Shown one piece after another: positions 2,997-29,298 of a DNA stretch of 64,000 nucleotides. The stretch covers positions 15,437 to 79,436 of the forward strand of contig JBBQYX010000006.1 of the NCBI GenBank assembly GCA_038208295.1. The letters are read 5' to 3'. Below the pieces are notes generated by a model. That model saw nothing but the letters and a program-made list of their open reading frames with translations, was not told the origin of the DNA and did no database searches. Each line of letters begins with the position of its first letter. The first letter of the stretch is position 1. The translations under genes were made by a program, and so were the position numbers. The DNA comes from Candidatus Nanopelagicales bacterium (GTDB taxonomy: Bacteria; Actinomycetota; Actinomycetes; S36-B12; JBBQYX01).

Positions 2997-3017
2997 GCCC
3001 GTACAGGCACCCCGGAG

Positions 3018-11569: not shown

Positions 11570-11674
11570 GCCTTCCTGAGGTGCCGATCAGTGGTGGCCC
11601 ACGGCACGCCGTGGCCGGCTGAGGAGCCCGCCTTGCGGGCCGGGCGGGAGGATCGAGGGTGCCCCGTACCGGAT

Positions 11675-11716: not shown

Positions 11717-11735
11717 TCCGACGGCACAGGTTCGA

Positions 11736-12863
11736 CTAGGACAGGGCGTCCACCGAAGAGCGCACCTTGGTGATCAGGTCACCGGTGATCGGCACGTAGC
11801 CCAGGTCGGGCAGCATCTCCTGCGCCGCGTCGCTTGCGGTGTAGGTCAGGAAGGACTTGGTGAGCGCCAACTGTTCGGCCGGCAGGCCCTGCTCGCAAGT
11901 GATCTCGTAGGTGAGCAGCACGATCGGGTAGGAGCCGGCGTCCTTGGTGGCGTAGTCCAACTTCAGGGCCAGGTCGTTCCCGGTGCCGACGACCTCGCCG
12001 GAGGCGATCGTCTTGGCCGCGGTGTCACTGCTGGCCTCGACCGCACCGCCGCCGTTGTCCACCATGGCCATGCCCAGCTTGGCATCCTGCGCGAACGACA
12101 ACTCGGTGTAGCCGATGGAGTTCGGCGTCGACTTGACCGAGGAGGTCACGCCGTCGGATCCCTTGGAGCCCTGGCCGCCCGGGGCCTTCCACTCCTTGCC
12201 GGCGCCGAACGTCCACACCTTCGGGGCGCTGGCCTCGAGGTACTTGGTGAAGTTGTCGGTGGTGCCGGAGGAGTCGCTGCGGTGGAACTGCGCGATCGTC
12301 GCATCCGGCAGCGTGACGCCAGGATTCGCAGCGGCGATCGCTGGATCGTTCCACTTGGTGATCTTGCCAGCGAAGATGCCGGCGATGTCATCGGCAGTCA
12401 GGGTGAGCTTGTCCACCCCGGGCAGGTTGTAGGCCATCGCGATGGCGCCACCGACCATGGGCATGTTGATTGCCTTGCCAGGCGCGCAGCGAGCGTTCGC
12501 CTTGGTCAGGTCATCCTCCTTGATGGCCGAGTCCGAGCCGGCGAAACTGGTCTGCTTGTTGATGAAGTCCTGGATACCGGCGCCGGAGCCGTTGCCCTGG
12601 TAGTTGATCGTGGCGCCTGGGCACTTGGTCTGGTAGGCGTTGATCCACTCGGCCATGGCGTTCTTCTGCGCCGACGACCCGGACGCCTTGATCGACCCCT
12701 GGACGCAGTCGCCGGCGGCGGCGCTGCCGGTGTCGCTGGCGCTGGCCGTGTCGCTGGCGGCCGAGGTCGTCGTGCCGCTGCCGCTGTCCGAGCCGCAGCC
12801 GGCCAGGGCCAAGACGCCGACGGCCACGACGGCCGACAACGAGACGAGGCGGTTCTTCTTCAC
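11736..12863 (-). CDS. pstS: Phosphate-binding lipoprotein PstS
   Basis: Lipobox LALAGC. Phosphate-binding motifs ASGSSAQ, GNGSGAG and RSDSSGTT, plus LTADDIAGIFAGKITKWNDP. Confidence 0.93.
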   Translation of the reverse strand: MKKNRLVSLSAVVAVGVLALAGCGSDSGSGTTTSAASDTASASDTGSAAAGDCVQGSIKASGSSAQKNAMAEWINAYQTKCPGATINYQGNGSGAGIQDFINKQTSFAGSDSAIKEDDLTKANARCAPGKAINMPMVGGAIAMAYNLPGVDKLTLTADDIAGIFAGKITKWNDPAIAAANPGVTLPDATIAQFHRSDSSGTTDNFTKYLEASAPKVWTFGAGKEWKAPGGQGSKGSDGVTSSVKSTPNSIGYTELSFAQDAKLGMAMVDNGGGAVEASSDTAAKTIASGEVVGTGNDLALKLDYATKDAGSYPIVLLTYEITCEQGLPAEQLALTKSFLTYTASDAAQEMLPDLGYVPITGDLITKVRSSVDALS

Positions 12864-12944
12864 CGGAAGTTCCTCCGAGGTGTCGCACGGGTAGGTGGGC
12901 GATCGCCGCAGACGCTAAGGAGGGCGGGTGTCCGCGCGGCCGGT

Positions 12945-12966
12945 GGCCGGTGAACAGACCGTGAAC
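12945..12966 (-). promoter_or_regulatory. PHO-box-like operator: two 11-nt direct repeats GTTCACGGTCT GTTCACCGGCC
   Basis: Read on the pstS strand, 82-103 nt upstream of the pstS start. It has the exact 11-nt periodicity and GTTCAC core described for actinobacterial PhoP/RegX3-type operators. Confidence 0.5.
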
Positions 12967-14094: not shown

Positions 14095-15627
14095 TCAGCC
14101 CAGCCGGGTGCGCTGGTGCACCTTGCGTACGCGCGGCCAGGCCTTGACGAACTGCAGCCGAGCGCGGTGCTCGGCTTCCACCTCCACGCCGTGCAACAGG
14201 CCCAGCGCGAAGCCGGTGCGCCCGTCGATGCCGTCATGGCCGGCGATCTCCCGAACGGTGTCCTGGGCGATGGCCGCGTCCTGGTGCTCGCCCAACACCT
14301 CGGTCACCATTGACAGCTGCTCGGCCAGCGCCTTGGCCGGCGCCCCGAAGACCGGGACCACCGCCTCCACCGCGTACCGCGCCTTCTTGGCCGCGATCCG
14401 GGTCTCGTGCCAGTCGGTGCTGGGGCCGTCCAGCCGCAGCCCGCGTACGTCCCGGCGCAACCGCCGCCAGGCCTTGTCGACTAACGCGGGCAGCACATCG
14501 CGGGCCGGGGCCTGCGCGGCGTCGGTCAGCAACGGCGCGTGCGCCGCCTGCACCAGCGCGACCAGCAGGTCACGGTGCCGCTGGCTGCGCAGGGCCTCCA
14601 AGGCCTCCTCGCGGGCGTGCGTCAACCGCTCGCGCAGCACTCGGTCCACGGCCTCGCAGGCCAGCGCCGCGTCGTCCGGTGCCAGTCGAGCCGCGTGCGC
14701 ATCGAGGCGACCCAGCAGCACTTCGGTGTCCCGAATCGCGCCCAGTTCGCTGGCCGCCCAGCCCAGTTCAGTCCGCAGTGCCGCGGCCCATTCCGGGTCC
14801 ACCAGCGGCCCGAACGCGTGCAGGCCACTGCGCAGCCGCCGGGCGGCGACCCGCATCTGGTGGACCGCGTCGGGCAGGTCCCGACGGACCCGGACGTCCT
14901 GCAGCAGGAACCGGCGGACGTGGGTGGCCAGGTGGGCCCGTACCGCGTCGGCGGCGGGGTCCTTCGGCGACACCGGTCCGGGCGGTACGAGGTCGGGGGG
15001 CGCGGATGCGCGCGGGCCCAGGGCGTGCGCGGCCTTGGACGACGTCCCGGGGACGGCGCCGAGGTCGACGAGCAGGTCCACCACCTCACTGAGCACGGCC
15101 GCCGAGGCCTCCAGGTCGTCCCCGACAACCTCCACCTCGATCTCGCGGAAGCGGGCCGCGACGTGCTCGCCGTCCAGCACCGAGACGGTGTCATCCACCA
15201 GTTCGGCCAGGATTCGCCCGTCGTGGTCACGCAGCAGGTGCGGCACCCGGACGTTGCGCAGCGTCGCGACCGCGGTAAGCGGGTGCTCTCGGGTCAGGGC
15301 CGTCACCAGGTCGGCGAGTTCCCACGGAACCGCACCGTCCACACCGTGGTCCAGGGGCACCCGGACCTCGTCCCGCACCCCCAACCCGAAACCCTCGACG
15401 GGGAGTTTCAGATGCCAGCCGGCGTCGTGGCCACCCTCCCGCCGCCGCAGGGTGATGCCCCAGCGGAACAGCCGGAGATCCTCAGTGTCGTGATAGACCG
15501 CGGTCAACGTCAGGGGCTCCTGCCGCTCGACCGAGGCCACCAGGGACAGCGCGTCGTTCAGGTCGGGCAGCCGGAACAGCGCATGGACACGGAGTTTGCG
15601 CTCGACCTCGCGATAGGTGTCGCTCAT
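14095..15627 (-). CDS. CYTH plus CHAD domain protein (triphosphate-tunnel enzyme fused to polyphosphate-binding CHAD)
   Basis: N-terminal EVERKL (ExExK) CYTH signature. Long helical His/Arg-rich C-terminal CHAD-like half. The ATG at 15627 overlaps the ppk1 stop (TGATG). Confidence 0.88.
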   Translation of the reverse strand: MSDTYREVERKLRVHALFRLPDLNDALSLVASVERQEPLTLTAVYHDTEDLRLFRWGITLRRREGGHDAGWHLKLPVEGFGLGVRDEVRVPLDHGVDGAVPWELADLVTALTREHPLTAVATLRNVRVPHLLRDHDGRILAELVDDTVSVLDGEHVAARFREIEVEVVGDDLEASAAVLSEVVDLLVDLGAVPGTSSKAAHALGPRASAPPDLVPPGPVSPKDPAADAVRAHLATHVRRFLLQDVRVRRDLPDAVHQMRVAARRLRSGLHAFGPLVDPEWAAALRTELGWAASELGAIRDTEVLLGRLDAHAARLAPDDAALACEAVDRVLRERLTHAREEALEALRSQRHRDLLVALVQAAHAPLLTDAAQAPARDVLPALVDKAWRRLRRDVRGLRLDGPSTDWHETRIAAKKARYAVEAVVPVFGAPAKALAEQLSMVTEVLGEHQDAAIAQDTVREIAGHDGIDGRTGFALGLLHGVEVEAEHRARLQFVKAWPRVRKVHQRTRLG

Positions 15628-17804
15628 CAATGGGCCCGGCGCAGTTGCTTAGTGACGATGAGGGTCTCCTGGTAGTCGGTGAGGGGCGTGCCGTCCTCGG
15701 CGTGGGTCATCCGTGTCCAGTTGCCGTCCGGACCCAGTCGCCACGAACTGGTGCCCGGGTCCAGGGCGAAGTCGAACAGAGTCGCGATCTCGCGGACCTG
15801 ATCCGCACTACCCAGCCGGACCAGGGTTTCCACCCGCCGGTCCAGATTGCGGTGCATCAGATCCGCCGAGCCGATCCACACCTCGGGCTGACCGGCAGTC
15901 TCGAACTCGTACGCCCGGGAATGCTCCAGGAAACGACCGAGCACGCTGACGACCCGGACGTTGTCCGACAGGCCCGGGACACCCGGTCGGATCGCGCAGA
16001 TCCCCCGGACCCAGACATCGACCGGCACGCCGGCCTGCGACGCGCGGTATAGCGCGTCGATGATCCGTTCGTCCACGATCGAGTTGCACTTGAAACGAAC
16101 CCGGGCGGGCTGGCCGGCCCGGTGGTTCTCGACCTCCCGCTCGATGCGCGTGATCAACCCGGTACGGATGGAATGCGGCGCGACCAACAGTCGGTCGTAA
16201 TCGGTGTTGCGGGAATACCCGGAGAGTACGTTGAACAGCCGGGCGACGTCCTCACCAACCACCTTATCCGTGGTCAGCAGGCCGTAGTCCTCGTACAACC
16301 GGGCCGTCTTGGGGTGATAGTTACCGGTGCCCAGATGGCAGTAGCGGCGCAGCTGATCGCCGTCGTCGCGCACCACCATGGACAGCTTGCAGTGCGTCTT
16401 CAGCCCGACGAGGCCGTAGACGACGTGGACCCCGGCCTCCTCCAGTTTGCGACCCCAGTCGATGTTGGCCTTCTCGTCGAACCGGGCCTTGATTTCCACC
16501 AGGGCCAGCACCTGTTTGCCCGCCTCGGCGGCGTCGATGAGGGCGTCGATGATCGGAGAATCCCCGGACGTGCGATAGAGGGTCTGCTTGATGGCCAGCA
16601 CGTTCGGGTCCGCAGCCGCCTGCTCCAGGAACCGCTGCACGCTGGTGGAGAAGGAGTCGTACGGATGGTGAATCAGGACATCGCGCTGGCGCATCGCATC
16701 CAGGACGTCCGGAGCCATCGCGGTCTCGACGTCGGTCAGTGCACGGCTGGTCTTCGGCACGAAGGCGGGGAGTTTCAGGTCGTCCCGGTTGACGCCGACC
16801 AGGGCCCACAGCCCGGTCAGATCCAGTGGCCCCCGGAGCTGGACGACCTCCTGCTCGCTGATGCCGAGTTCGCCTACCAGCAGTTCGCGTACGTACGGAT
16901 CGATCGACTCCTCTACCTCCAGGCGGACCGGCGGACCGAACCGGCGTCGGGTGAGTTCACGCTCCAGCGCGGCGAGAAGGTTCTCGGCGTCGTCCTCCTC
17001 CACCTCCATGTCCTCGTTGCGGGTGACCCGGAAGGTGTGGTGCTGCAACACCTCCATCCCCGGGAACAACTCCCCGAGGTTGACCGCGATCACGTCCTCC
17101 AGGGGTACGAACCGCTCACCACCGAGGGCGACGAACCGCGGCAGTAGCGGTGGCACCTTGACCCGAGCGAACAACTCGGTGCCGGTCTGCGGGTTGCGGA
17201 CCACGACCGCCAAGTTCAACGACAGTCCCGAGATGTACGGGAACGGGTGCGACGGATCGACCGCGAGCGGGGTGAGCACCGGGAAAACCCGATCGACGAA
17301 CATGTCGTTCATTCGTACGCGCTCGGACTCGGTCAACTGCTCCCAGCGCAGGATCTCGATGCCCTCGCCCTGCATCGCGGGCAGCACCTCACGGTGGAAC
17401 ACCTCGGCCTGGCGCATCATCAGATCCCGGCTGCGCAGCCAGATCGCCTCGAGCACCTCCCGCGGCAACCGGCGACTGGCGGCCCGCACCGCGATACCCG
17501 TCACGATCCGCCGCTTCAGACCCGCGACCCGGACCATGAAGAACTCGTCCAGGTTGCTGGCGAAGATGGCCAGGAACTTCGCTCGCTCCAGCAGCGGCAG
17601 GTTCGCGTCCTCGGCCAGCTCCAGCACCCGCTCGTTGAACGCCAGCCAGGAAAGCTCCCGGTCCAGGAAGCGGTTTTCGGGCAGCGGCTCGTCGGTGGCC
17701 GACGGCGGCAGCGGCGTCTCCAGCGCTGGCTGGGGTGCCGAAGCCGGCTCGGAAGCCGGTGCGGCGGACTCGGCTGCGGCCTCGACGTCCTGACTCATGG
17801 TCAT
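15627..17804 (-). CDS. ppk1: Polyphosphate kinase 1
   Basis: 725 aa. [20 protein letters not shown]-terminus, the KTHCK autophosphorylation-site region ([12 protein letters not shown]), and two PLD-like C-terminal domains. Confidence 0.96.
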
Positions 17805-17874: not shown

Positions 17875-18879
17875 TCAGCGCCGATACAGGACGTCGGTGT
17901 CCCAGCGAGTGAAACCCAGCGATTCGTAGACCCGGATGGCCGCGGTGTTGACGGCGTCCACATACAGCATCGCGTCGGGCAGACCGCGGGCGCGCAGATG
18001 CTGCAGTCCCGCAATCGTCAGCGAGCGGCCCAGCCCCTGCCCGCGCCGCTGGGGCGAGACCCCGACCACGTAGACCTCGCCGATCGGCGCATGCCCGTGG
18101 TCGTCATGCCGGTGGGCCGGTCCCCCGTCGTGGCTGTGGATCGCCTCACCCCCGTGCATCTTGGTCCAGTGGAATCCCACCAGCGGGCCGAAGCCGGTCG
18201 GGTCGCCCGCCCCGGGCCCGGGCGCCGACGTGCTCTGCGCCACCAGGAACCCCTCAGGGTCGAACCACGGCTCAGCCATCCGACGGTGCAGGTCTGCGAC
18301 CGTCCAGCCGGCCTGATCGGGCAGTTCGACGAAGGCGGCCGCATTCAGGGCGACCCAGTGCTCGTCGTCCTCCCCCGGGTGGAAGGCGCGGATCGTGACG
18401 TCGGCGGGCAGCCGATAGCTGGGCAGCGGCGCGTACAGGGACCGGCGCATCTGCCACAGCACGCGGGCGCGGGTGAATCCCAGCTCCCGGGCCAGCCGGC
18501 CGGCCGCCGGGTGCTCCCCGTGGGCCCACAGCCGCAGCCGACCGTCCGGGCTCTCGGCGAGCAGGCGTCGGGCCAGCAGTCGGCCCAGGCCCTGGCTGCG
18601 GAAGTGCGGATCGACGGCCATCTCGGCGCTGGAACCCTCCACCACGTCGGTGACGTCGAGATGGGCGTAGCCGGCCAGCCGGGGACCGGTGGCCGCTTCT
18701 GCCCAGACCAGGACGTGGCGCACGTCGTAGTCGCCGCCGTAGCGCAGGTGCAACGTGACGTGCTCGGACAGCGGCCGTACCCCGTCCGCCTCGGTGACCC
18801 GCTCGACCAGCATTGCCACCGCGTCCACCTCGACCGGTTCCAGGTGCGGCACCACCTCGACGCTTCCGACCCCGGCCAT
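17875..18879 (-). CDS. mshD: Mycothiol synthase MshD (tandem GNAT)
   Basis: Two GNAT repeats (RSQGLGRLL and RRGQGLGRSL acetyl-CoA loops). Length and N-terminal region are typical of MshD. Confidence 0.88.
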   Translation of the reverse strand: MAGVGSVEVVPHLEPVEVDAVAMLVERVTEADGVRPLSEHVTLHLRYGGDYDVRHVLVWAEAATGPRLAGYAHLDVTDVVEGSSAEMAVDPHFRSQGLGRLLARRLLAESPDGRLRLWAHGEHPAAGRLARELGFTRARVLWQMRRSLYAPLPSYRLPADVTIRAFHPGEDDEHWVALNAAAFVELPDQAGWTVADLHRRMAEPWFDPEGFLVAQSTSAPGPGAGDPTGFGPLVGFHWTKMHGGEAIHSHDGGPAHRHDDHGHAPIGEVYVVGVSPQRRGQGLGRSLTIAGLQHLRARGLPDAMLYVDAVNTAAIRVYESLGFTRWDTDVLYRR

Positions 18880-18916: not shown

Positions 18917-20671
18917 TCAGCCGGAGTGCGGCACGTGCAGCCGCCGACGCACTGAGGTAAGTCGGCGCGAGGACAGCCGCCCCCAGCCCCGCCCGCCCAG
19001 CAGCGCCGCGACCGCCAGCGTCGCCAGCACGGCCACCAGGATCACCGCGGCGGCCGCAGCTCCCCCGCCGCTGCCGGAATCCAGTTGGAGCACGGTCGGC
19101 TGCAGCGCGGCGTAGACCCCGGCGTCGACGCCGCCGCCCGCTGCAGCACCGGCCCCGGCGGCCCCACCGCCCACCGGGGCGGCCCCCACGCCGCCGACGG
19201 CCGCCACCGTTCCGGACCTGCCGGTCACCGTGCCACGGGCCGTCCCCGGCCCGGCGACCGTGCCACCACCCGGTGCCACGGTGCCGGCGCCGGGCAGGGC
19301 ACCGGTCGAACCGCCCGCCGTCGAGCCGGACCCGGCCGGAGTCCCCCCGCCGGTCGAGCCGCCGCCGGTCGGGCCACCGCCAGTCGGGCCACCGGCACCA
19401 CCCGCCGCAGGTGCACTGCCCCCGTCGAAAGTGCCGCTCCCGGGGACCGCACCCGCCCCCGGTGTCCAGGCCGCACTGCCGGGCAGGATGTCGGTGGCTC
19501 CCTGGCCCAGCGACCCGGTCAGCGCCGGGTTGGCACAGTTCGCCGCCGTGGGCGCCGGAAAGTTCGCGTGGCCCGGCACCTGCCCGATGGCGTCGAAGAC
19601 GACCTTGACCAGGTTGGCCGGCAACGGCGAGTAACCCAGGATCGTGGCCTTCTGCTGGCCGGCGCAGGCGAAGTACGCCATGAACTTCGAGATCACGTCA
19701 CCCTTGGCCGGATCCAGCCCAGTGGTAGGCACGATCATGTAGGAGTAGCTGGACATCGGGTAGACGTTCGGGTCGGGGTTGACATACACCGCGTCCAGGT
19801 TCTGCGTCTGGTCGGAGTTGAGCCGGGCCAGGGTTAGCGCCGTGGCGACGTTGCGCGACGTCGGCAGGACATAGCGTCCCGACCTGTTCTTCAGCGCCGC
19901 CACGGGGAAGCGTCGCTGGACCGCGTACCCGGTCTCGACGTACCCGATCGATCCGACGCCGGTGCCCGGGTTCGCCACGAAGTTCGCGACCCCGTCGGAA
20001 CCCTTCTGGGCGACGGAGTTGCTGAACGCAGGCCAGTTGGACGTTGATTCGGCGGGGATCCCCTGCTCCCGGGCGAACTTCCCCCAGATGCCGGAGGTCT
20101 GCCTGGCCAGATAGGCGGAGAACTGCGCCGATGTGCCCGACCCGTCGGACCGGATCACCGGCGTGATCGGCCGCTTCGGCAGTGCCTTGCCGTAGTCGGC
20201 CGTGATCACCGGGTCCGACCAGTCGGTGATCTGCCCCGTGAAGATCTTCCCCACGGTGTCCGGCGACAGCCGCAGGTCGCGGACCGCACGGCCGGCCGGG
20301 TCGGTCAGGTTGTACATGAACGAGGTGCCGCCGGCGACAATCGGCAGGTACGCCCAGGTTCGTCCGCGACCCTTCAGCTGACCGACCTCATCGGGCAGGA
20401 AAGGGATCTCCGAGACGGCGAAGTCCACCTGGTTGATGACGAAGAACTGCCGGCCGGCGCTGGACCCCACGCCGGAATAGTTGACGTTCAGCGCCTGTGC
20501 GCTGGCCACGTCGGCCCGCCACTGATCGACCGCGATCTGGCTCCAGGTGGATCCGGCCCCCGTGACAGTCGGGCCGTCGGCGAGGGCCGGCGGAGCGACC
20601 AGCACCACCGGAACGGCGGCGCTCACCAGGGCGAGCACCGCGGCGACAAGCCGCCGGGACGAGACCACCAT
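18917..20671 (-). CDS. PstS-family periplasmic-binding-fold protein with Gly-rich low-complexity tail, C-terminal TM helix and basic tail
   Basis: ATG at 20671 (MVVSSRRL) within ORF 18917..21094. Signal peptide ending ALADG. PstS-like motifs GAGSTWS, GVGSSAG, RSDGSGTS and LSPDTVGKIFTGQITDWSDP. The tail is about 130 aa of G/A/T/P-rich sequence, then AAAAAVILVAVLATLAVAALLGG and RLSSRRLTSVRRR. Confidence 0.8.
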   Translation of the reverse strand: MVVSSRRLVAAVLALVSAAVPVVLVAPPALADGPTVTGAGSTWSQIAVDQWRADVASAQALNVNYSGVGSSAGRQFFVINQVDFAVSEIPFLPDEVGQLKGRGRTWAYLPIVAGGTSFMYNLTDPAGRAVRDLRLSPDTVGKIFTGQITDWSDPVITADYGKALPKRPITPVIRSDGSGTSAQFSAYLARQTSGIWGKFAREQGIPAESTSNWPAFSNSVAQKGSDGVANFVANPGTGVGSIGYVETGYAVQRRFPVAALKNRSGRYVLPTSRNVATALTLARLNSDQTQNLDAVYVNPDPNVYPMSSYSYMIVPTTGLDPAKGDVISKFMAYFACAGQQKATILGYSPLPANLVKVVFDAIGQVPGHANFPAPTAANCANPALTGSLGQGATDILPGSAAWTPGAGAVPGSGTFDGGSAPAAGGAGGPTGGGPTGGGSTGGGTPAGSGSTAGGSTGALPGAGTVAPGGGTVAGPGTARGTVTGRSGTVAAVGGVGAAPVGGGAAGAGAAAGGGVDAGVYAALQPTVLQLDSGSGGGAAAAAVILVAVLATLAVAALLGGRGWGRLSSRRLTSVRRRLHVPHSG

Positions 20672-21483
20672 CAGCCGAACCTTCCGTTCACATAGTCCGC
20701 GGTACGCGAGTCCTGCGGGTCGCTGAACAACTGGTGGGTATCGCCGTGCTCGACGATGTAGCCCGGCCGGTTCTCGGCGGCGAGGAAGAACGCGCATTGC
20801 TGCGAGACCCGCTGGGCCTGCTGCATGTTGTGCGTCACGATCACGATGGTCACCCGCTGGGAGATCTCCGCCATCGTCTCCTCGATCACCCGGGTGGAGG
20901 TGGGGTCCAGCGCCGAGCACGGCTCGTCCATCAGGAGCACCTCGGGGTCCACCGCCAGGGACCGCGCGATGCACAGTCGCTGCTGCTGCCCGCCGGACAG
21001 CGCCCCGCCGGGTTGGTCCAGTCGGTCGGCCACCTCCCGCCACAATCCGGCCCGACGAAGTGACATCTCGGTGAGCTCGTCCTTGTCCGCGCACCTGATC
21101 CCGGCGAGCTTCAGACCCGACAGCACGTTGTCGCGGATCGACATCGCCGGGAACGGGTTCGGTTTCTGGAACACCATCCCGATCCGTTTGCGGGTCTCGG
21201 TCGCACGCATCTCGACGCCGTAGACGTCCTGGTGGTCCAGCAGTACCCGGCCGGCCAGCCGGGCGCCGGGGATCAGCTCGTGCATCCGGTTGAGGATCCG
21301 GAGAAACGTCGACTTGCCGCAGCCGGACGGGCCGATCAGGGCGGTCACCGTGCGCGGCGGCATCGCCAGGTCCACTCGGTCGAGCACCTTGCGCTCGCCG
21401 AACCAGGCACTGACCGCCTCGGCGACAATGCCGCCGCGTTCGGGGACGGAAACCGGTTCGAGAGCGTCCAGGGTCGCGGTCAC
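20671..21483 (-). CDS. PstB-type ABC ATPase, second copy
   Basis: GTG at 21483 overlaps the upstream stop (GTGA). [33 protein letters not shown] and the C-terminal [10 protein letters not shown] (PstB hallmark). Confidence 0.9.
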
Positions 21484-22607
21484 GATCTCCTCCTCGCGAA
21501 ACGGCGGACCCGGGAACTCCCCGTTCGGGTCCGGCCGAGGTAACGGGCGATGCTGAACAGCAGCAGGACTATGAACACCAGCACGAATGCGCCGCCGTAG
21601 GCCCGTTCCTGCTGCGCGGCGAACGGGTTCGTGAGCAACTGGTACACCGACAGGGGCAGGCTGGCCTGAGCCCCGGCGAACGGGTTCGCATTCATCGCGG
21701 TCGAGCCGAACGATGTCATGATCAGCGGCGCGGTCTCTCCGACCACCCGGGCCACGCCCAGCACCACGGCCGTGATCAGCCCGGATCGCGCAGTGGGCAG
21801 CACGACGCTCCACACGGTACGGAACTCCGTGGAGCCCAACGCCAACGAGGCCTCGCGGAGCCCGTCGGGCACCAACCGGAGGACCTCCTCCGAGGTCCGC
21901 GCGATGGTGGGCAGCATCAGGACCGACAACGCCATCGCTGCCGCGAAACCGCTGAAGGAGAAACCGAACTGCACGATCCACACCGCGTAGATGAACAGGC
22001 CCGCAACGATGGATGGCACGCCACTCATGGCGTCGATGAACATGCGCACCGGCCGGCGCAGCGGGCCGCCGACCTCGTTCAGGAACACCGCGGTCAACAC
22101 ACCCAGCGGCACCGAGATGACCACGGCCAGCGAAACCTGTTGCAGGGTGCCGACCAGGGCATGCGCCAGGCCGCCGCCGGCGTCCAGGGTACCGGTGAGC
22201 GAGAGATCCCGGGTGAAGAAGTCGGGTTTCAGCGCCGCCACGCCGCGGCCGAACACGAACAGCAGGATCAGCATCAATGGGACCAACAGCATCGCCGTCC
22301 CCAGCGTCACCACGGTCGTTGCCACCCGGTCCCGGGCCGGCAGCCGACCCAGCGTGGCCCGACAGACCACCCAGTAGAGAGCCCAGAAGGCCAATAGCCA
22401 CAGGACCAGGAAGCCCGCAATACCGGTGGTGGGGAGCAACTGGGTCCACAGCAGCCAGACCACGGACAGGGACGAAACCGCCGCACCGAACAGCAGCATC
22501 CGGTCCTCGGTGGTCGAGCCGTGGATGTGCCGTTCGACCTCCGGAGATTCCAGCGGCCGCTCGCCCGTCACCGTGGTGCGTTCGGTGAGGCTCACAGTCC
22601 TATCCAT
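21480..22607 (-). CDS. PstA-type permease, second copy
   Basis: ATG at 22607 (MDRTVSL) in ORF 21480..22676. Multi-TM with [14 protein letters not shown]. Collinear with the canonical PstA at 9501..10574. Confidence 0.85.
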
Positions 22608-22623
22608 TCGCTCGGTCCGGTGC

Positions 22624-23637
22624 TCACAGCTCCACCCCCGCACCGCTTCTCGACCGCGCCACGATCGCCGAGGCAACGAAGTTGACGGTCAGCGCCAGCG
22701 CGAACAGGGCCAGCCCGGCGGCCATCAGGGCTGACAACTGCAACGGGTCGGCCTCGCCGAAGCGCAGGGCGATCAGGGCGGCGACCGAGTTCGCTCCGGT
22801 CTGCAGCAGGTTGGGCCGGATCTCGAAGATCGGCGAGATGATCAGCGCCACCGCGATGGTCTCGCCCAGCGCCCGGCCCAGGCCCAGCATCGCGCCGCCG
22901 ATGATGCCGCCACGGCCGAACGGCAGGACGACCGCGCGCACCATGCCCCAGCGGGTGCTGCCCAGCGCCAGCGCCGCCTCCTTCTCTCCCGGCGGCGTCT
23001 GGCTGAAAACCTCCCGCACGACCGACGTGGTGATCGGCAGCACCATCAGCGACACGACCACCCCCGCGATGAACGCCGAGGACGAGTACGACTCCGCCGT
23101 GACCGCGAAGAACGGGATGAACGACAAGTGCGTCGACAGCGCCTGTGCCAGGGGCACCAGGTACTGCTGCAGGAAGATCAGTCCCCACATGCCGTAGATG
23201 AGGCTGGGAATGGCGGCCAGCAGATCGACCAGAGAGCGAAGCGGTCCGCGCAGCCGGCGCGGGGCATAGTCCGTCAGGTATAGCGCAGCCAGAATGCTCA
23301 GCGGCACCGCGATCACCAGGGCGATGAGCGCGATGACGACCGTCCAGTACAGGACCGCAGCGATCCCGAACGTGGGCGGCGTCCGGTCCGGATTCCACCT
23401 TTGCTCGGTGAAGAACGACCACCCCTGACTGGCCAGGGCTGGTTCGGCCCGGATGAGCAGAAACGCGCCGATCAGCACCAGAATCAGCAACGTGGCGATC
23501 CCGGCAGCCAGCGCGAAACCTCGGTAGACCCGGTCGACCCTGGTCCGGGCCGAGGTCAACTCGCGCGGTTGGTCCGCTTCGTTCTCCTCGATCGCGAGAT
23601 CCGAGTCGCCGAAGAACGGTTCCAGCGGCGACGACAT
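22624..23637 (-). CDS. PstC-type permease, second copy
   Basis: ATG at 23637 (MSSPLEPFF) in ORF 22624..24003. Multi-TM with KEAALALGSTRWGM. Collinear with PstC at 10574..11569. Confidence 0.85.
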   Translation of the reverse strand: MSSPLEPFFGDSDLAIEENEADQPRELTSARTRVDRVYRGFALAAGIATLLILVLIGAFLLIRAEPALASQGWSFFTEQRWNPDRTPPTFGIAAVLYWTVVIALIALVIAVPLSILAALYLTDYAPRRLRGPLRSLVDLLAAIPSLIYGMWGLIFLQQYLVPLAQALSTHLSFIPFFAVTAESYSSSAFIAGVVVSLMVLPITTSVVREVFSQTPPGEKEAALALGSTRWGMVRAVVLPFGRGGIIGGAMLGLGRALGETIAVALIISPIFEIRPNLLQTGANSVAALIALRFGEADPLQLSALMAAGLALFALALTVNFVASAIVARSRSGAGVEL

Positions 23638-23781
23638 GGGGCTCCTCGGTCGTGGATCGGCGCCGGTGTCGGTGGTTCGCTGTACGCAGTCCACCGGCGG
23701 GCGCATTGACGGCGGCCGCGCATAGGTGCGCCCCGGCTGCGCCGCAGAGCATCCGCGGCCTCGCGCAACGGCAGGGCGATA

Positions 23782-23814
23782 CCGGCGGGAACAAGCCGTG
23801 ACGAGCAGATGAAC
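23782..23814 (-). promoter_or_regulatory. Three consecutive 11-nt GTTCA-type units (GTTCATCTGCT CGTCACGGCTT GTTCCCGCCGG), PHO-operator-like
   Basis: Read on the minus strand, 145-177 nt upstream of the second pstC start, in the 254-nt divergent intergenic region. The periodicity is exact but the core conservation is only partial. Confidence 0.4.
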
Positions 23815-23891
23815 AGTCAGCGATCTGCGTTTGCACCGGCTTGACGCCATGCGGCGATGCCGCGCACCGTGCTCCCCGGTCCTGCCGAGCC

Positions 23892-25865
23892 ATGGCGGGG
23901 CCGTCGGCGAGACTGTGGGGAGTTGAGCGCGTGCGCGCCGGGACTCGTGCCGTGCTGGCCGCCGCCACGGCGGTGGTGACGGTGTTCTGCGGGATCCAAA
24001 CAATCCCGGCGTCCGCCGCCGCGAACTCGGGGCCGCGCACCGTCTCGGTCGTTCCGGCCGGCGGGCTGACCGACGACCAGACGCTCACCGTGTCCTGGTC
24101 GGGTTTCGCGCCGATCGCGGGCGTGGTGATCCGCCAGTGCGGCCCCGACCCCACCGAGGCGTCCGCCTGCAGCACGGCGCTGGTCGCCGGGGAGTCCTCC
24201 GACGAGTCCGGCCGAGGCACGGCCTCGATCCCGGTCGTCATCACCGACCCGGTGAACAACCGGCTCCTGGAGGGGGCACCGGAGGCGCGCTGCGACGCAA
24301 CGCATCCGTGCTCCATCGCCGTAGTGCCGCAGACCGCCCCCGATGACCTCAGCCAGGCAGCCATCGCGGCGATCACCTTCGCCAAGAGCCGCGCCGCCTG
24401 CCCTGAGCCGGGTGCCCTGACCCTGCGCGGGGAAGGCAGCGACAGCCTGGAACGGGCCATGCTCGCGTGGATCCCGCAGGTCTGCGACCCACCGCTGTCG
24501 GTGTCAGCCGACTACGTACCCAAGAACGACCCCAGTGGTGTGGAGGATGTGGCCTGCGGGCTGCGCGACATCGCGGGTGTCCAGGCGGCTCCCCCCGATG
24601 ACTCCTGCCCGTTCACCGGCAAGAGCCGGCCGGCGTCAGCGGTTGCGCCGGTGGCTGTTTCCGGGCTGGCCTTCGCGTTCAACATGCGCGACACCGACAC
24701 CGGGCGGCGCATCGATGCACTGAAACTCACCCCGGACGTCCTGGCCGAGATCTTCACCGGCCAGATCCTGTCCGGGCGCGATCCACGCATCACGAAACTC
24801 AACCCCGGCGTGAAACTGCCCACAAAACTGCGTCCCATCGCCCGCGCCGACCGCAGCCAGCTCACCGTGCAGATGTCCACGTTCTTCTGGCAGACCGCGC
24901 ACACGGCGTACACCTCCGGCGGTCCCGCGTTCAGCGCCGGGCCGATCGATGTCTTCCCCACGCTGGGCGGGGTGGACGCCCGCACCGGTGGCGACCCAGT
25001 GGCTCTCGCCGTCGCCCGACCGCCGGACAACAACCCAAAGTCGGACCCGACGTACGGCTACATCGGCGTGCTCGACACCAGCATGGCCGCTGCCTACGGG
25101 CTGCCCAGCGCCTCGATCCTGGGCACCGACGACAAGACGTGGGTACCGCCGACCGCCGACTCACTGGCCCGTGGGCTGGCCGCGATGAAGCCCGGTCCCA
25201 CCGGGACCCTCGTCGCGAACCCGGCACCCAAGGATCCGCGGGCGTACCGGCTGCCGGTCGTCTCCTACTTCCTGCTGCCTCCGGCCGATTCGCCGGCCAC
25301 GGTAACCGCGGCCGGGGTCCTGTTCACCGGCTGGGTGACCACCACCGGGCAAAGCAAGGACATCCTGCCGCTGGGCTACCTGGCATTGCCGCCGACGCTG
25401 GTCAGCCAGGCAGCCAACGCGTACGGACTGCGCGGGGACAGCAAGCGTGCGCCCGCCGCGGCCGACCCCAGCCCAGCACCTTCGGCCAGCGCCTCCGGCT
25501 CGGCGCCCTCGGCCGGTCCAGCCACGGCCGCCCCTGCCCCCGCGCCCGTCCAGCCCGGCGTCCCGGTCCCCGCATCGGTGGGGCCGGCAACTGCTCCGGT
25601 CGTCCCGATTGCCCCGACCGCCCTGGCTGCAGGCCAGCCGACCAACGCGCCCACGCGCCGGCCCAGCGCCTCGGCAGGCGTCACCGACCCGGTCATGGCC
25701 GCTCCCGACGCGGCAGTGCCGGCGGTCGTGACGACGTCGGTGTTCGCTCCGGCTGCCCCAGAGGGGCTGCCGGCATCATCCTGGTTGTTCCTCGCCCTCG
25801 TCTTCGGTGCCGTGACCGCGCTGCTGGCAGCGCCGCGCAGCCGCCGCCGCGGGAGCCAGTCGTGA
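23892..25865 (+). CDS. Exported multi-domain protein: neocarzinostatin-like N-domain, divergent PstS-like binding fold, Pro/Ala linker, sorting-signal-like C-terminus
   Basis: ATG at 23892 in ORF 23841..25865. Signal peptide ending PASAAA. TVSVVPAGGLTDDQTLTVSWSGF...VIRQCG...PCSIAV resembles the NCS/Ig-like domain. LTPDVLAEIFTGQILSGRDP matches the PstS-family motif. The tail is LPASS, then WLFLALVFGAVTALLAA, then PRSRRRGSQS. Confidence 0.75.
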   Translation: MAGPSARLWGVERVRAGTRAVLAAATAVVTVFCGIQTIPASAAANSGPRTVSVVPAGGLTDDQTLTVSWSGFAPIAGVVIRQCGPDPTEASACSTALVAGESSDESGRGTASIPVVITDPVNNRLLEGAPEARCDATHPCSIAVVPQTAPDDLSQAAIAAITFAKSRAACPEPGALTLRGEGSDSLERAMLAWIPQVCDPPLSVSADYVPKNDPSGVEDVACGLRDIAGVQAAPPDDSCPFTGKSRPASAVAPVAVSGLAFAFNMRDTDTGRRIDALKLTPDVLAEIFTGQILSGRDPRITKLNPGVKLPTKLRPIARADRSQLTVQMSTFFWQTAHTAYTSGGPAFSAGPIDVFPTLGGVDARTGGDPVALAVARPPDNNPKSDPTYGYIGVLDTSMAAAYGLPSASILGTDDKTWVPPTADSLARGLAAMKPGPTGTLVANPAPKDPRAYRLPVVSYFLLPPADSPATVTAAGVLFTGWVTTTGQSKDILPLGYLALPPTLVSQAANAYGLRGDSKRAPAAADPSPAPSASASGSAPSAGPATAAPAPAPVQPGVPVPASVGPATAPVVPIAPTALAAGQPTNAPTRRPSASAGVTDPVMAAPDAAVPAVVTTSVFAPAAPEGLPASSWLFLALVFGAVTALLAAPRSRRRGSQS

Positions 25866-26851
25866 GCGCACCCACGGACCACGTCCGGGAAATGATTCCG
25901 CCACCGACCGCGCCAGTGCCGACGGCGGAACTGCTGGCGGCGGACGTGGAAAATCTTCCGGACGACCCTTTCGAGACGCCCGAGCCGCCGCCCGTGGCCG
26001 CCGTCGCCCGCTACTCCGACTCCCGGTGGCCCCGTCCGACGCGGGCGCAGCTGCTGCTGGGCGTCGGCGTGTTGATTGTTTCCATGCTCGCCGTGCAGTT
26101 CCTGCTCGGCGCGCCCCTGCAGGCGCGCAGCCAGACCGTGCTGCACCAGCAGTTCGCCGACAAGCTCGCCACCGCTGCATCGACCGCCGGCCAGGTCGGC
26201 CTGTCCCCCCTACCGCCGTACCCCCCGGCCACCGGCGAGCCGGTGGCCCTGCTGCGGATCCCGGCGCTCGGGCTCAGCCAGGTGGTCACCGAAGGGGCGG
26301 ACGGGGCCACCCTGCAGAACGGCCCGGGTCACGTCCCCGGGACCGCCGGGCCGGGCGAGCCGGGCAACTCAGTCATCAGCGCGCACCGAACCGCATGGGG
26401 CGCCGCATTCCGCGGGCTGACCGGGCTGCGCGTCGGCGATCCGATCGCTGTCACCACCGTCGCCGGTACAGCCCGCTACATCGTCACCGGCACCGGGACG
26501 CCGGACCCGTTGGCGCTGACCGCCGACAACCGGCTCACCCTGGTCACCTCCGACCCGCCGCTGCTCGCATCGACCGACTACGCGGTGAGCGCTGCGTTGC
26601 AGGGGGCGCCGTTCCCGCCCACCGCTCAGAACGGCCTCGTCGACCGGCCGTTGCACTCCGGGTCACCGGCCGCGTGGGCGCAACTGGTGTTCTGGCTGTC
26701 CCTGGGGTTGGGCCTGCTCGCCGCCGTCGTCGTGGCGCTGCGCATCGGGCTGGCGCGACCCGTCATCTGGCTGCTGGCGACCCCGCTGGCCCTGGCCCTA
26801 CTGGTCGTGCTCACCCGGACCCTGGACACGTTCCTGCCCCCGACGCTGTGA
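25862..26851 (+). CDS. Sortase-fold membrane protein lacking the catalytic Cys (class E-like, TLVTS variant)
   Basis: GTG at 25862 overlaps the upstream stop (GTGA). N-terminal TM helix. GHVPGTAGPGEPGNSVISAHR matches the sortase His region. RLTLVTSDP replaces TLxTC(H)P. The translated 329 aa contain no Cys. Two extra C-terminal TM helices. Confidence 0.7.
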   Translation: MSAPTDHVREMIPPPTAPVPTAELLAADVENLPDDPFETPEPPPVAAVARYSDSRWPRPTRAQLLLGVGVLIVSMLAVQFLLGAPLQARSQTVLHQQFADKLATAASTAGQVGLSPLPPYPPATGEPVALLRIPALGLSQVVTEGADGATLQNGPGHVPGTAGPGEPGNSVISAHRTAWGAAFRGLTGLRVGDPIAVTTVAGTARYIVTGTGTPDPLALTADNRLTLVTSDPPLLASTDYAVSAALQGAPFPPTAQNGLVDRPLHSGSPAAWAQLVFWLSLGLGLLAAVVVALRIGLARPVIWLLATPLALALLVVLTRTLDTFLPPTL

Positions 26852-27102: not shown

Positions 27103-28464
27103 GTGCGAGTCACCACCAAGGTCGGCGCTGCGATCGCCATCTGCGCCGCCGTCGGCGTCGTCGCGACGACGCTGCCCGCCTCCGCGGCCGCCGGTTGGAC
27201 CACCGGCAAACCCGTCATGATCGTCGGACAGGGCTCCGACACCAACTACGACGTCATGACGAAGCTGGACGCGTTGTACAACAACGCGCCCGGGTGCGGC
27301 GTCATCGCAAACCCCGGTGTGTCGATCGGCACGGCCGACCTGGGTTCCTGCATCGACCCGGCCACCGGCAAGGTTGCCACCCCCGACGCCAACGACGCCA
27401 TGTACCTCAATCCCCAGCACGACCAGGTGAACGAGGCGTTCCCGGTCGGTTCTGGCAGCGGCATCAAACTATTGGTCAACCAGGGCGGCGCCGGCGTACC
27501 GCAGGTCGACTTCGCCCGCTCCTCCCGGGGCCCCGGGACCGACGCGAAGACCACGAAGTTCGTGGCGTTCGCCCGTGACGGCGTCACCTGGTTCCACTTC
27601 ACCAAGGCCGCGGGGAAGTTCACCCCCTCCGCGCAGATCACGAACCTGACCCAGCAGCAACTCCTAGACGTCTTCACCGGCAAGACCACGAACTGGAAGG
27701 ACATCTCCTCGCTGGAGACGGTCCGGGTCACGAAGTACGTCGTGAAGCCGGTTTACCGCAAGGACCCCAAGACCGGACGTTTCGTCAAGGTGTTCAAGAA
27801 GGACGCGAAGACCGGCAAGGTGGTGCCCGTCACCTCCGTAGTCAAGACGTACGTGAATCAGCAGAAGACCATCACCGGCGGCGACGCCCCGATCAAGCTC
27901 TACATCGCACAGCCGGGCTCCGGCACGCTGTCGACATGGAACTCGTTCCTGGGTATCGGGACCGGCAGCAACGCGTACCCCACGGGTGACGCAGCGCCGA
28001 AGTCGATCTTCGAGAACAATGCCAACCCGATTGTGGACAATGGGGACGCGGCCAACGCCATCTTCTTCTTCTCAACCGGCCGGTACGCCCAGTCGGTCGG
28101 CAAGGCCGGCCAACTGGTGGGCAACTCCACCGGGCGGCCGAACTACACCGATGCGATCGGCAAGATCGCCGGTATCGCCCCGACCCCCGACACCATCGGC
28201 GGCAAGGACTTCCCCGGCTTCCGCAACCTCTACTTCGTGACCAACGACCCGGTCAAGGCGAACGTCGCCAACTACCTCGACCCGATCAACGGCTTCCTGT
28301 GCGGGACCAAGTCCGAGACCGTGAAGAACGCCCAGGGCGCCACGTTCCGCAGCGTCATCGAGAAGACCATCGCGAGCGAGGGCTTCGTTCCGATCGTCAA
28401 GAAGACCATCACCGACGGCGCCGCCACTGGCAGCTCCTACTGCGAGGTCTCCCGGGTTTCCTGA
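27103..28464 (+). CDS. Exported PstS-family binding-fold protein with Lys-rich insertion
   Basis: GTG at 27103 preceded by GAAGGGA. Signal peptide ending PASAAA. VGSGSGIKLL, FARSSRGPG, QPGSGTLSTW and LTQQQLLDVFTGKTTNWKDI parallel the PstS motifs. An insertion follows (KYVVKPVYRKDPKTGRFVKVFKKDAKTGKVVPV). Confidence 0.8.
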   Translation: MRVTTKVGAAIAICAAVGVVATTLPASAAAGWTTGKPVMIVGQGSDTNYDVMTKLDALYNNAPGCGVIANPGVSIGTADLGSCIDPATGKVATPDANDAMYLNPQHDQVNEAFPVGSGSGIKLLVNQGGAGVPQVDFARSSRGPGTDAKTTKFVAFARDGVTWFHFTKAAGKFTPSAQITNLTQQQLLDVFTGKTTNWKDISSLETVRVTKYVVKPVYRKDPKTGRFVKVFKKDAKTGKVVPVTSVVKTYVNQQKTITGGDAPIKLYIAQPGSGTLSTWNSFLGIGTGSNAYPTGDAAPKSIFENNANPIVDNGDAANAIFFFSTGRYAQSVGKAGQLVGNSTGRPNYTDAIGKIAGIAPTPDTIGGKDFPGFRNLYFVTNDPVKANVANYLDPINGFLCGTKSETVKNAQGATFRSVIEKTIASEGFVPIVKKTITDGAATGSSYCEVSRVS

Positions 28465-28563: not shown

Positions 28564-29298
28564 CTAGCGGGCTACCTGGAGGTCCTCGGCCAGGGTGGCC
28601 AGCGTGGTCTCGTCGGCCCGCGGCGGGACGAACCGGTAGCCGACGTTTCGGACGGTCCCGATCAGTTGGTCGTGCTCGATCCCGAGCTTGGCGCGCAGCC
28701 GCCGAACGTGGACATCCACGGTTCGCGTCCCGCCGAAGTAGTCGTAACCCCAGACCTCCTGCAGCAACTGCGCCCGGGTGAAGACACGACCCGGGTGCTG
28801 GGCCAGGAACTTGATGAGCTCGAACTCCTTGAACGTCAGGTCGAGGGTCCGCGACCGGATCCGGGCGGTGTAGGTGGCCTCGTCGATCACCAGCTCGCCG
28901 GACCGGATCTCGTCCGGCGGCTCGTCCGGCACCTGGTCGCGGGTCGCGGCCAGCCGACCGGCGGCGAACCGCAACCGGGCCTCGACCTCGGCGGGACCAG
29001 CCGAGTCCAGCAGCACCTCGTCGACCCCCCAGTCGGCGTGCACCCCGACAATGCCCCCCTCGGTGACCACCAGCAGCACCGGGACGTCGACGCCGGTCTG
29101 TCGGATCAGCCGGGTCAGGGACCGTACGTGCGGCAGGTCGCGCCGCCCGTCGACCAGGATCGCGTCCACGTGCGGGGCGTCCAGCAGCGCGCTGCCCTCT
29201 GCCGGCATGGCGCGCACCTGATGGGTCAGCAGGCCCAGCGCCGGCAGCACCTCGGTGGAGGGCACCATCGCGTTGGTCAGCAGCAGCAGTCGGCTCAT
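28564..29298 (-). CDS. glnR: GlnR, orphan OmpR-family global nitrogen regulator
   Basis: [24 protein letters not shown]... and the C-terminal [51 protein letters not shown] closely match the Streptomyces GlnR sequence as I recall it. No cognate kinase is adjacent. Confidence 0.85.

Follow-up and report, generated by a model that had tools for sequence, protein, structure and literature searches.

The window, the whole stretch of DNA analysed here, comprises 64,000 nucleotides from Candidatus Nanopelagicales bacterium, an organism with a GC content of about 70%. On its forward strand lie two overlapping genes. The upstream gene (23841..25865) encodes a PstS-like, tail-anchored protein of 674 aa from a TTG start, with an ATG at 23892 as another possible start. 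Its TGA stop codon (25863-25865) shares a 4-nt GTGA overlap with the GTG start codon (25862) of the downstream gene, and GGGAG is present 7 nt 5' of this GTG. The downstream gene (25862..26851), studied by translation, profile searches, AF2 and Foldseek, encodes a protein of 329 aa, which we refer to as a pseudo-sortase.

From the N- to the C-terminus, the pseudo-sortase consists of a cytoplasmic tail, TM1, an extracytoplasmic sortase domain, TM2, TM3 and an extracytoplasmic LPPTL-COOH tail, all encoded on the forward strand. In the AF2 model, TM1 covers approximately residues 63-85 (26048..26116) and resembles the N-terminal signal-anchor of class E sortases; its helix extends to residue 109 as one long helix (61-109). 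The sortase beta-barrel domain spans approximately residues 124-247 (26231..26602) according to Pfam, AF2 and Foldseek. TM2 (271-295) and TM3 (299-322), separated by a short basic loop (26672..26827), are modelled at pLDDT ~95, in agreement with the two extra C-terminal helices described in the initial annotation. The predicted extracytoplasmic tail (26834..26848) is the window version of a family motif, [LF]P-x-[T/W]-x-COOH.

A sortase fold without the catalytic triad

Sortases attach surface proteins to the cell walls of Gram-positive bacteria; as cysteine transpeptidases they are textbook enzymes, and they also serve as drug targets. By homology, profile and fold, the window protein is a member of the sortase superfamily (PF04203 / MEROPS C60). 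The Pfam Sortase profile PF04203 matched residues 131-233 with 65.6 bits (gathering score 26.6; E 4.6e-18) and TIGR01076 scored 42.9 (cutoff 39.35), while the NCBIfam class E sortase model NF033747 gave 82.8 bits, far under its cutoff of 160, in a match confined to positions 5-153 of the 211 in the profile. The AF2 model has a pLDDT of 87, and its top Foldseek folds were sortase D (4d70; TM-score 0.81 on target) and SrtE (5go5; 0.70), confirming the sortase-like fold that had been proposed from the sequence. The by-eye assignments of the His region and the active-site strand were likewise reproduced: GHVPGTAGPGEPGNSVISAHR aligns with the PGExGNxxxAGHR region of the solved sortases D and E, and RLTLVTSDPP aligns with LLTLTTCNPKF of canonical class E sortases from related loci.

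The best sequence and fold matches are class E sortases, namely those of Streptomyces coelicolor (SrtE1/SrtE2), S. avermitilis (SrtE) and Thermobifida fusca. These enzymes belong to the same phylum and share with the window protein the N-terminal signal-anchor, the extracytoplasmic beta-barrel and the PG-x-x-GN...(A/G)HR and LTLxT motifs. In contrast to class E sortases, the window protein lacks both the Cys and the catalytic Arg, and the family norm lacks the His as well. Pseudo-sortases also differ from class E enzymes by Val or Leu in place of the S3 Tyr, by the addition of a C-terminal two-TM hairpin with an LPxT or LPAW tail, and by a cognate neighbour that carries neither LAxTG nor LPxTG. 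We propose that pseudo-sortases descend from class E-like sortases.

Related loci were collected with a 25-sequence alignment, and HMM searches located 86 family ORFs, derived from 80 species genomes, 5 metagenome loci and the window; a wider sample comprised 148 representatives at 50% identity. The window protein scores 294.9 bits against the family HMM and possesses the features that define the family, that is, a Cys-less sortase domain (Ser230), the C-terminal TM2/TM3 helical hairpin, which is the family hallmark, and the LPPTL end.

In the family alignment, the catalytic-Cys site of the TLxTC strand is occupied by Ser230 (TCC; 26549-26551), as initially annotated. The orthologue count that had been suggested as a check gave Ser in 85 of the 86 ORFs, Thr in 1 and Cys in 0. 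His175 (CAC; 26384-26386) occupies the catalytic-His site, at which the other 85 ORFs encode Arg. The catalytic-Arg site is Ala in 81/86 ORFs and Asp239 (26576-26578) in the window protein, in the column that holds Arg in the canonical class E sortases of loci L015, L040 and L044; the downstream Arg is indeed missing. The triad thus reads H-S-D in the window protein, with R-S-A or R-S-R as the family norm and R-S-D in the three nearest relatives. Judging from this distribution, His175 is probably a secondary change. Among the 148 representatives, only 3 keep the H-C-R triad. Since the 329-aa translation contains no Cys, Cys-thioester chemistry is impossible for the window protein, and the earlier exclusion of thioester-based transpeptidation stands.

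At E<=1e-30 and 50% identity, the family amounts to ~1785 clusters, roughly 1,800. Its members have a near-invariant GPGHVPGTAGPGQPGNS motif, a mean column identity of 35-43% and a strongly conserved TLxT(S) strand; in the window protein, the family's most conserved motif is GPGHVPGTAGPGEPGNS (26321..26371), which includes Val158. On these sequence measures (the near-invariant motif, the column identity and the number of clusters), the family is under selection. Its members occur in Amycolatopsis, Actinomadura, Spirillospora and many Acidimicrobiia (Actinomycetota), and databases name them "class E sortase", "sortase A" or "sortase". Full-text literature searches, most of them directed at inactive or Cys-less sortases, turned up no account of a conserved sortase branch that is catalytically dead, and the family is apparently undescribed so far.

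The PstS-like partner and a variant pst locus

The upstream protein, hereafter the partner, begins with a signal peptide, followed by a Cys-rich Ig-like (neocarzinostatin-like) domain and a degenerate PstS-like domain; its C-terminal part contains a Pro/Ala-rich stalk, the sequence VPAV..TSVFA, a TM helix and the tail RSRRRGSQS. A twin-arginine motif is absent from it, so that published work on Tat tail anchors does not apply. It scores 301 bits against the partner HMM. Gene pairing is a directly observed property of the family: a homologue of the partner (~700 aa, tail-anchored) is located within 10 kb in 84/86 family loci, in most cases as the immediately preceding gene in the same orientation, and the 4-nt gene overlap of the window recurs in L002 and L004. 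Moreover, 17 of the 148 representatives are fusions of partner and pseudo-sortase, and both TM helices are in consistent topology in 4 of the 5 fusion junctions examined. No partner is present in the context of P0017, a Cys-bearing two-TM relative, but this context is only 2 kb long and uninformative.

The initial annotation had suggested a pseudo-enzyme that serves as scaffold or receptor for its coupled neighbour. Of the readings compared, a pseudo-enzyme tied to its neighbour has the best support, given the 84 paired loci and the fusions; its scaffold or receptor role is a putative one. The element it had pointed to in the neighbour, "LPASS", was abandoned, because it is unconserved even in the partner of the closest relative (L087). 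Instead, the partner family motif is [ILVM]-P-x-[FY], located ~7-15 residues before the TM helix and degenerate in the window (VPAV, then TSVFA). In the partner alignment, the window segment from this juxtamembrane motif (VPAV, aligned to the family IP-x-F) through the C-terminal TM helix is encoded at 25716..25835 (+). The pattern of [ILVM]P-x-[FYLW], TM helix and basic (A/S)GR(P/R) was matched in 63/72 non-redundant partners; a few of these 63 matches (LPLL/LPFL, APEW) lie inside or against the TM helix and are not genuine motifs. With its TM helix and basic tail, the arrangement resembles a sorting signal in sequence, and LPXTG/LAXTG and the Thr-Gly scissile pair are absent from the motif both in the family and in the window.

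Divergent from the pair lies a variant phosphate ABC operon on the reverse strand (18917..23636), which encodes PstC (22624-23636), PstA (21480-about 22676), PstB (20671-about 21500) and a tail-anchored PstS (18917-20680) composed of a PstS domain, a Gly-rich stalk and a C-terminal TM helix. This PstS domain matches solved PstS structures with E 1e-35. The variant operon thus has PstC, PstA and PstB in common with canonical PstSCAB, along with a bona fide PstS domain. It departs from the canonical system with its lipoprotein PstS in that the genes are arranged as pstC-A-B-S, that PstS lacks a lipobox and is tail-anchored via a Gly-rich stalk, and that the locus additionally carries the PstS-like partner and the pseudo-sortase. 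Downstream of the pair, a profile search identified a secreted PBP_like_2 (PstS-family) protein of 453 aa (27103..28464, +), a homologue of which likewise lies behind the gene of the closest relative in L086. The pst linkage extends across the family, with a tail-anchored PstS and pstB within 10 kb in 72/85 related loci.

The window also contains a separate canonical pstSCAB operon (8686-12914). The region upstream of the canonical pstS carries a PHO box, unlike the divergent promoter region of the variant locus (23637-23891), where exact GTTCACC is absent and only weak half-sites, forming no convincing PHO box, were found. The phosphate-binding RSDGSGT motif is mostly lost in the partner's PstS-like domain; it reads RADRSQLT in the window and is unconserved across partners. 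A phosphate-related role is suggested mainly by the gene neighbourhood.

The proposed membrane complex and the former substrate groove

On balance, we favour the explanation that a catalytically inactive sortase homologue acts as the membrane partner of the PstS-like protein and is accessory to the second, variant Pst locus. According to this model, a sortase that lost the His-Cys-Arg triad and gained a C-terminal two-helix membrane hairpin ending in LPxT-x or LPAW-x would neither cleave nor transfer proteins. Instead, it would pair 1:1 in the membrane, as a fixed partner, with the PstS-like, tail-anchored surface protein that is encoded immediately upstream and co-translated with it. Association of the two proteins, which would be non-covalent, most likely occurs via a bundle formed by the partner TM helix and the three pseudo-sortase TM helices; the partner TM helix is modelled by AF2 at pLDDT 75-82. 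The former substrate groove may still bind a peptide, which would be either the pseudo-sortase's own C-terminal tail or the juxtamembrane [ILVM]P-x-[FY] of the partner, and the pair would constitute an accessory module of the second Pst phosphate-uptake locus.

At the S3 subsite of class E sortases, a Tyr in the beta3/beta4 loop has been put forward as the reason why Ala is preferred to Pro at P3 (PMC5148588). In this column, the window protein has Val158 (GPGH-V-PG), as against the class E Tyr (Tyr229 of SrtE1), and the family has Val in 183, Leu in 42 and Tyr in 19 of 274 sequences. The Tyr is present in 7 of 10 Cys-bearing relatives, and the residue is mostly aliphatic in nearly all pseudo-sortases, which fits a Pro-containing ligand.

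It is possible, but rather doubtful, that the pseudo-sortase's own [LF]P-x-[T/W]-x-COOH tail permanently fills the groove in cis, like a pseudo-substrate built into the protein, with the partner contacted solely via TM helices. This alternative is a sub-variant of the favoured explanation that differs in the groove ligand and in which the domain is only a structural ectodomain. The tail motif resembles a sorting signal, is found in nearly all family members and forms the extreme C-terminal end of the chain, which is predicted to lie outside the membrane. Its AF2 pLDDT is 88 in the window protein and 93 in the natural fusion P0064, as against ~48 for the partner's IPAF motif, the docking of which on the sortase domain was tested in the P0064 model and is unsupported at this confidence. 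Furthermore, the catalytic Arg of sortases touches the bound LPxT peptide (PMC5148588), and in pseudo-sortases the tail covaries with this site: Thr co-occurs with Arg in 61/81 cases, whereas Trp co-occurs with the Arg-to-Ala change in 159/165 cases and never with Arg. However, this covariation tracks two clades and may stem from a single evolutionary event, and the 5-7 residues after TM3 may fall short of the groove, should the domain be mounted on the long 61-109 helix.

A related masking of the active site is known in class C (pilin-polymerising) sortases, in which an N-terminal loop of the active enzyme, a Pro-aromatic segment termed the "lid" (DP[FWY]), occupies the active site. By analogy, the LPAW/LPxT tail could mask the substrate groove intramolecularly; unlike the lid, it is the extreme C-terminus of the protein, follows two TM helices and belongs to a dead enzyme.

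Possible residual Ser chemistry and the meaning of the family

It appears improbable that the pseudo-sortase is a Ser-based active enzyme, in which Ser230, together with His175 in the window protein or with Arg in other members, would be the nucleophile that hydrolyses or transpeptidates the partner tail or the protein's own LPxT tail. Such an enzyme would account for the prevalence of Ser (85 of 86 ORFs and the majority of representatives), for its maintenance through synonymous variation across both Ser codon families (TCG 55, TCC 19, TCA 7, TCT 1 and AGC 3 among the 85 ORFs), for the strong conservation of the TLxT(S) strand and for the His of the window protein at the catalytic-His site. 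This His is, however, unique to the window protein; nearly all members carry Arg, as do its three nearest relatives, which makes the His175/Ser230 dyad envisaged in the initial annotation unlikely. The oxyanion- and substrate-positioning Arg is Asp in the window and Ala in most members. In the wider sample, the former Cys site is not Ser in ~20% of representatives, which have Ala (~17 of the 148), Gly, Thr, Asn, Pro or Leu and include H-A-R, R-A-R and K-A-R proteins in the window's own LPxT-tail clade. This variability is incompatible with an obligate nucleophile and fits a pseudo-enzyme, and it speaks against the Ser-based variant that had been considered at first. Retention of Ser in ~85% of members, with R-S-A almost invariant in the LPAW clade, means that some chemistry or specific hydrogen bonding at this site is possible.

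That the Ser reflects a mistake in sequencing, a TGC>TCC mutation of this strain or a decaying class E pseudogene, as might be suspected because Cys to Ser is a single nucleotide change and relatives are named "class E sortase" in databases, has practically no probability left and is refuted by the Ser in 85/86 ORFs with five different codons, the absence of Cys at this site from all 86, the intact ORF, the strongly conserved domain, the high AF2 confidence and the conserved gene context.

Returning to the inactive membrane partner that we favour, we can tentatively extend it to the whole of this large dead-sortase family, in which the groove might have become a permanent clamp, on the LPxT/LPAW tail or on the partner's juxtamembrane segment, within a four-helix membrane complex that serves a second Pst phosphate-acquisition system as a novel accessory subunit. 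Inactive rhomboids, the iRhoms and Derlins, are thought to keep client binding and to act as chaperones or adaptors for single-pass membrane proteins. The pseudo-sortase may be analogous as a membrane enzyme fold without catalytic residues; it differs in that neither its fold nor its domain of life is related to theirs, and client trafficking would apply to pseudo-sortases as an analogy only.

If the proposed model is true, it would provide the first case of a sortase fold that keeps a surface protein at the membrane non-covalently rather than attaching it covalently to the wall. As members are annotated as sortases, genome-based sortase counts and predicted surface proteomes are inflated in Amycolatopsis, Actinomadura and Acidimicrobiia. 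Pseudo-sortases offer a clean natural system for the role of the sortase groove once its chemistry has been removed. Finally, that these proteins are strictly paired and repeatedly fused with a tail-anchored PstS-like protein, next to a variant Pst transporter, points to an unstudied layer of phosphate acquisition, among others in actinobacteria of soil and wastewater (for example Microthrixaceae and Iamiaceae).

A sortase fold without its catalytic residues

The open reading frame at 25862-26851 (+) encodes a 329-residue protein, here called pseudo-sortase together with its homologues. The GTG start codon and the TGA stop of the preceding gene share the sequence GTGA (25862-25865), GGGAG lies 7 nt 5' of the start, and an identical protein is present in public data (P0001). 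PF04203 (Pfam Sortase) matched residues 131-233 with 65.6 bits (E 4.6e-18; gathering score 26.6). Sequence comparison with solved sortases aligned PGEPGNSVISAHR of pseudo-sortase with PGENGNFSIAGHR of sortase D, and also with SrtE. An AF2 model built with 42 homologues was confident (mean pLDDT 86.8, pTM 0.77) and contains a long N-terminal helix formed by TM1 and a stalk (residues 61-109), a beta-barrel (residues about 124-247) and two C-terminal helices (residues 271-295 and 299-322). The top Foldseek matches of this model in the PDB were all sortases, with sortase D (4d70) first (TM-score 0.81 on target) and SrtE (5go5) at 0.70.

By homology, pseudo-sortase is a relative of sortases and nearest to those of class E, but it differs from an active sortase in the absence of the catalytic Cys and Arg. 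The Cys site is occupied by Ser230 (TCC, 26549-26551, +) and the catalytic-His site by His175 (CAC, 26384-26386, +), while Asp239 falls in the catalytic-Arg column in a common HMM alignment with canonical class E sortases of related loci. Moreover, its top NCBIfam match, class_E_sortase, scores far under the curated cutoff (82.8 versus 160 bits) and ends ahead of the Cys strand, and the class E Tyr of the S3 subsite is missing. This Tyr, which follows GH (Tyr229 of SrtE1), has been proposed to confer the preference for Ala over Pro at P3 (PMC5148588). Nearly all pseudo-sortases carry Val, Leu or another mostly aliphatic residue there, and the Tyr is present in 7 of 10 Cys-bearing relatives. 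The initial annotation had reported zero cysteines in the translation, Ser230 at the Cys site, a missing Arg and two extra C-terminal helices, all of which proved correct on re-checking.

Loss of the triad across the family

A word-indexed search yielded 48 relatives, with Ser in the Cys column in 41 and Cys in only 4. Scanning one genome per species with a pattern identified a relative in 228 species, and 80 loci were retained, from many Amycolatopsis species, Actinomadura, Spirillospora, Herbihabitans and Kineosporiaceae as well as many Acidimicrobiia (Iamia, Microthrixaceae, Aquihabitans). With five metagenome loci and the window, these gave 86 family ORFs. The family HMM alignment revealed Ser at the former Cys site in 85 and Thr in one, Arg at the catalytic-His site in 85, with the window His as the sole exception, and Ala at the catalytic-Arg site in 81. 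The Ser codons (TCG 55, TCC 19, TCA 7, TCT 1, AGC 3) include many synonyms from both codon families, so the residue has been maintained through extensive synonymous change. This family-wide count rules out a sequencing error or strain mutation as the source of Ser230, and refutes the idea of a pseudogene.

When 1.84 billion representatives were searched with the profile and without filters, 1785 proteins scored E<=1e-30. Because canonical sortases reach only about 105 bits (roughly E 1e-25) against this profile, most of the 1785 should be true members; membership was checked for the best 148. His-Cys-Arg is kept in just 3 of these 148. Their former Cys site is mostly Ser, with Ala in about 17 and also Gly, Thr, Asn, Pro or Leu, and Arg, His, Ser, Lys, Ala and Pro all occur at their catalytic-His site.

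Cys-based catalysis has certainly been lost. The widespread retention of Ser at this site would suit a Ser-based enzyme, the variant that the initial annotation had allowed for with a His175/Ser230 dyad. However, a site that also takes Ala, Gly, Pro or Leu holds no obligate nucleophile, and the His and Arg are lost as well. The three nearest relatives of the window protein (42-50% identity) read R-S-D at the triad sites, so His175, unique among the 86 ORFs, is most simply read from the sequences as a secondary substitution (CGC to CAC) in an already inactive lineage, and the proposed dyad loses its basis. We therefore regard a Ser-based enzyme as improbable. The sequences best support the view that pseudo-sortase arose from a class E-like sortase by loss of activity, and it is very probably devoid of any catalysis.

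Four proteins (P0017, P0146, P0182, P0194) combine the two-TM C-terminal architecture with an intact His-Cys-Arg triad; their C-termini read LPxN[YF], they possess the class E Tyr, and they may represent the active ancestral form. The only available genomic context, a 2-kb locus (L088), contains no partner gene. Separately, canonical class E sortases with His, Cys and Arg (LTLTTCNPKF...QRLIVHA) are encoded near pseudo-sortase in Actinomadura and Spirillospora (locus L015, 11090-11821, -; L040, 15172-16002, +; L044, 11001-11732, -); in L015 and L044 the gene lies between those of pseudo-sortase and its partner.

The C-terminal two-helix hairpin, whose connecting loop is basic (consensus LYRRxxxR), is common to all members. 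The positive-inside rule and analogy to class E sortases would place the N-terminus and the TM2-TM3 loop in the cytoplasm, and the sortase domain and C-terminus outside. The linker between sortase domain and TM2 (26603-26671, residues 248-270) is conserved (PFxPTPQxGR...G..GD) and modeled as an ordered coil (pLDDT 83-92). The final five residues are nearly always [LF]P-x-[T/W]-x-COOH (LPAW 39, LPAT 27, LPST 17, LPGT 11, and others; LPPTL in the window), and the tail is predicted to be ordered (pLDDT 88 for the window protein and 93 for a fusion). By its sequence, an LPxT at the extreme C-terminus of a dead sortase is sorting-signal-like. Among 274 non-redundant sequences, 159 of 165 with tail Trp have Ala in place of the catalytic Arg, 61 of 81 with tail Thr retain the Arg, and none combines Trp with Arg. 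This covariation tracks a two-clade split and may thus reflect a single evolutionary event.

A tail-anchored PstS-like partner

The partner gene (23841-25865, +) lies directly upstream of pseudo-sortase. Its product has a signal peptide, a Cys-rich Ig-like domain (Neocarzinostatin match, 36.7 bits), a degenerate PstS-like domain (TIGR00975, 70 bits versus a cutoff of 205) in which the phosphate-binding motif RSDGSGTT has become RADRSQLT, a Pro/Ala-rich stalk, a TM and a terminal RSRRRGSQS. A homologue (at least 150 bits on the partner HMM, at most 10 kb away) was found in 84 of 86 loci, with fragments present in the other two. It is usually immediately upstream on the same strand, downstream in a few loci, and two loci (L002, L004) share the 4-nt overlap of the window.

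Furthermore, 17 of the 148 representatives (within P0062-P0117) carry both proteins on one chain of about 600-1090 residues; a further fusion lies at 260-3262 of locus L075. Such natural fusions are Rosetta-stone evidence that the two proteins associate physically as a 1:1 pair, which we consider highly likely. Four of the five junctions examined retain both TMs in a topologically consistent order (IPAF..TM..SGR..linker..TM1) with a short basic linker; in the fifth, P0068, the TM of the partner appears degenerate. The initial annotation had offered a pseudo-enzyme tied to its coupled neighbour or a Ser-based variant; triad loss, pairing and fusions favor the former.

By pattern search, 63 of 72 non-redundant partners have [ILVM]P-x-[FYLW] about 7-15 residues ahead of the TM and a basic (A/S)GR(P/R) after it, although a few matches overlap or abut the TM and are spurious. 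The layout resembles the tripartite organization of a cell-wall sorting signal, except that no scissile Thr-Gly pair is present. The window sub-clade has a degenerate motif, VPAV followed by TSVFA; the 'LPASS' previously noted in the partner is absent from that of the nearest relative and is not conserved. In the AF2 model of the fusion P0064, the IPAF motif is disordered (pLDDT about 48) and the partner TM reaches 75-82, so the modeling gives more support to TM-TM packing than to motif docking.

A second, variant pst locus

The pair is divergent from variant pstC (start 23636), pstA, pstB and a PstS gene (18917-20680, -). This PstS has a bona fide domain (E 1e-35 versus solved PstS structures), no lipobox, and near its C-terminus a TM followed by a basic tail; a Gly-rich low-complexity stalk of roughly 170 residues precedes the TM, making it tail-anchored rather than a lipoprotein. 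The same arrangement occurs in loci L001-L005, and 72 of 85 related loci have both a tail-anchored-PstS homologue and pstB no more than 10 kb away, several of the rest being truncated contigs. A canonical pstSCAB operon (8686-12914, -) comprises pstS (11736-12914), pstC (10574-11587), pstA (about 9600-10570) and pstB (8686-9621). Therefore, the organism has two Pst systems within 15 kb, and the pseudo-sortase module belongs to the second, variant one. Between them lie ppk (polyphosphate kinase; 15627-17804, -) and a gene for an mshD-like acetyltransferase with two GNAT domains (17875-18879, -).

No convincing PHO box was found in the divergent promoter region; an exact GTTCACC heptamer (12949-12955) lies just 5' of canonical pstS. 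A secreted PBP_like_2 protein is encoded 3' of pseudo-sortase (27103-28464), as in the closest relative's locus, and a GlnR-type orphan response regulator (GlnR_1st and Trans_reg_C; 28564-29298, -) immediately downstream of the module. Elsewhere in the window, an MsiK-like ABC ATPase gene (56044-57153, -) is preceded by the msiK RNA motif (57143-57200, -; Rfam RF01747, 58 bits), with a tRNA gene (57385-57456, +) nearby.

Neither Pfam nor NCBIfam has a model dedicated to this family, whose members are named 'class E sortase', 'sortase A' or 'sortase' in databases, and searches of full-text literature from a subset of journals, most of them aimed at inactive or Cys-less sortases, yielded no description of it. 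The nearest functional analogies are the lid of class C sortases, an intramolecular pseudo-substrate, and inactive rhomboids, membrane pseudo-proteases that retain client binding.

Taken together, an accessory phosphate-uptake locus would encode pseudo-sortase as the obligate membrane partner of the tail-anchored PstS-like protein. The former substrate groove may bind the protein's own tail, a segment of the partner, or nothing; gene neighbourhood gives a role of the pair in phosphate acquisition roughly even chances. The finding is real, extends well beyond the window and opens direct experiments.
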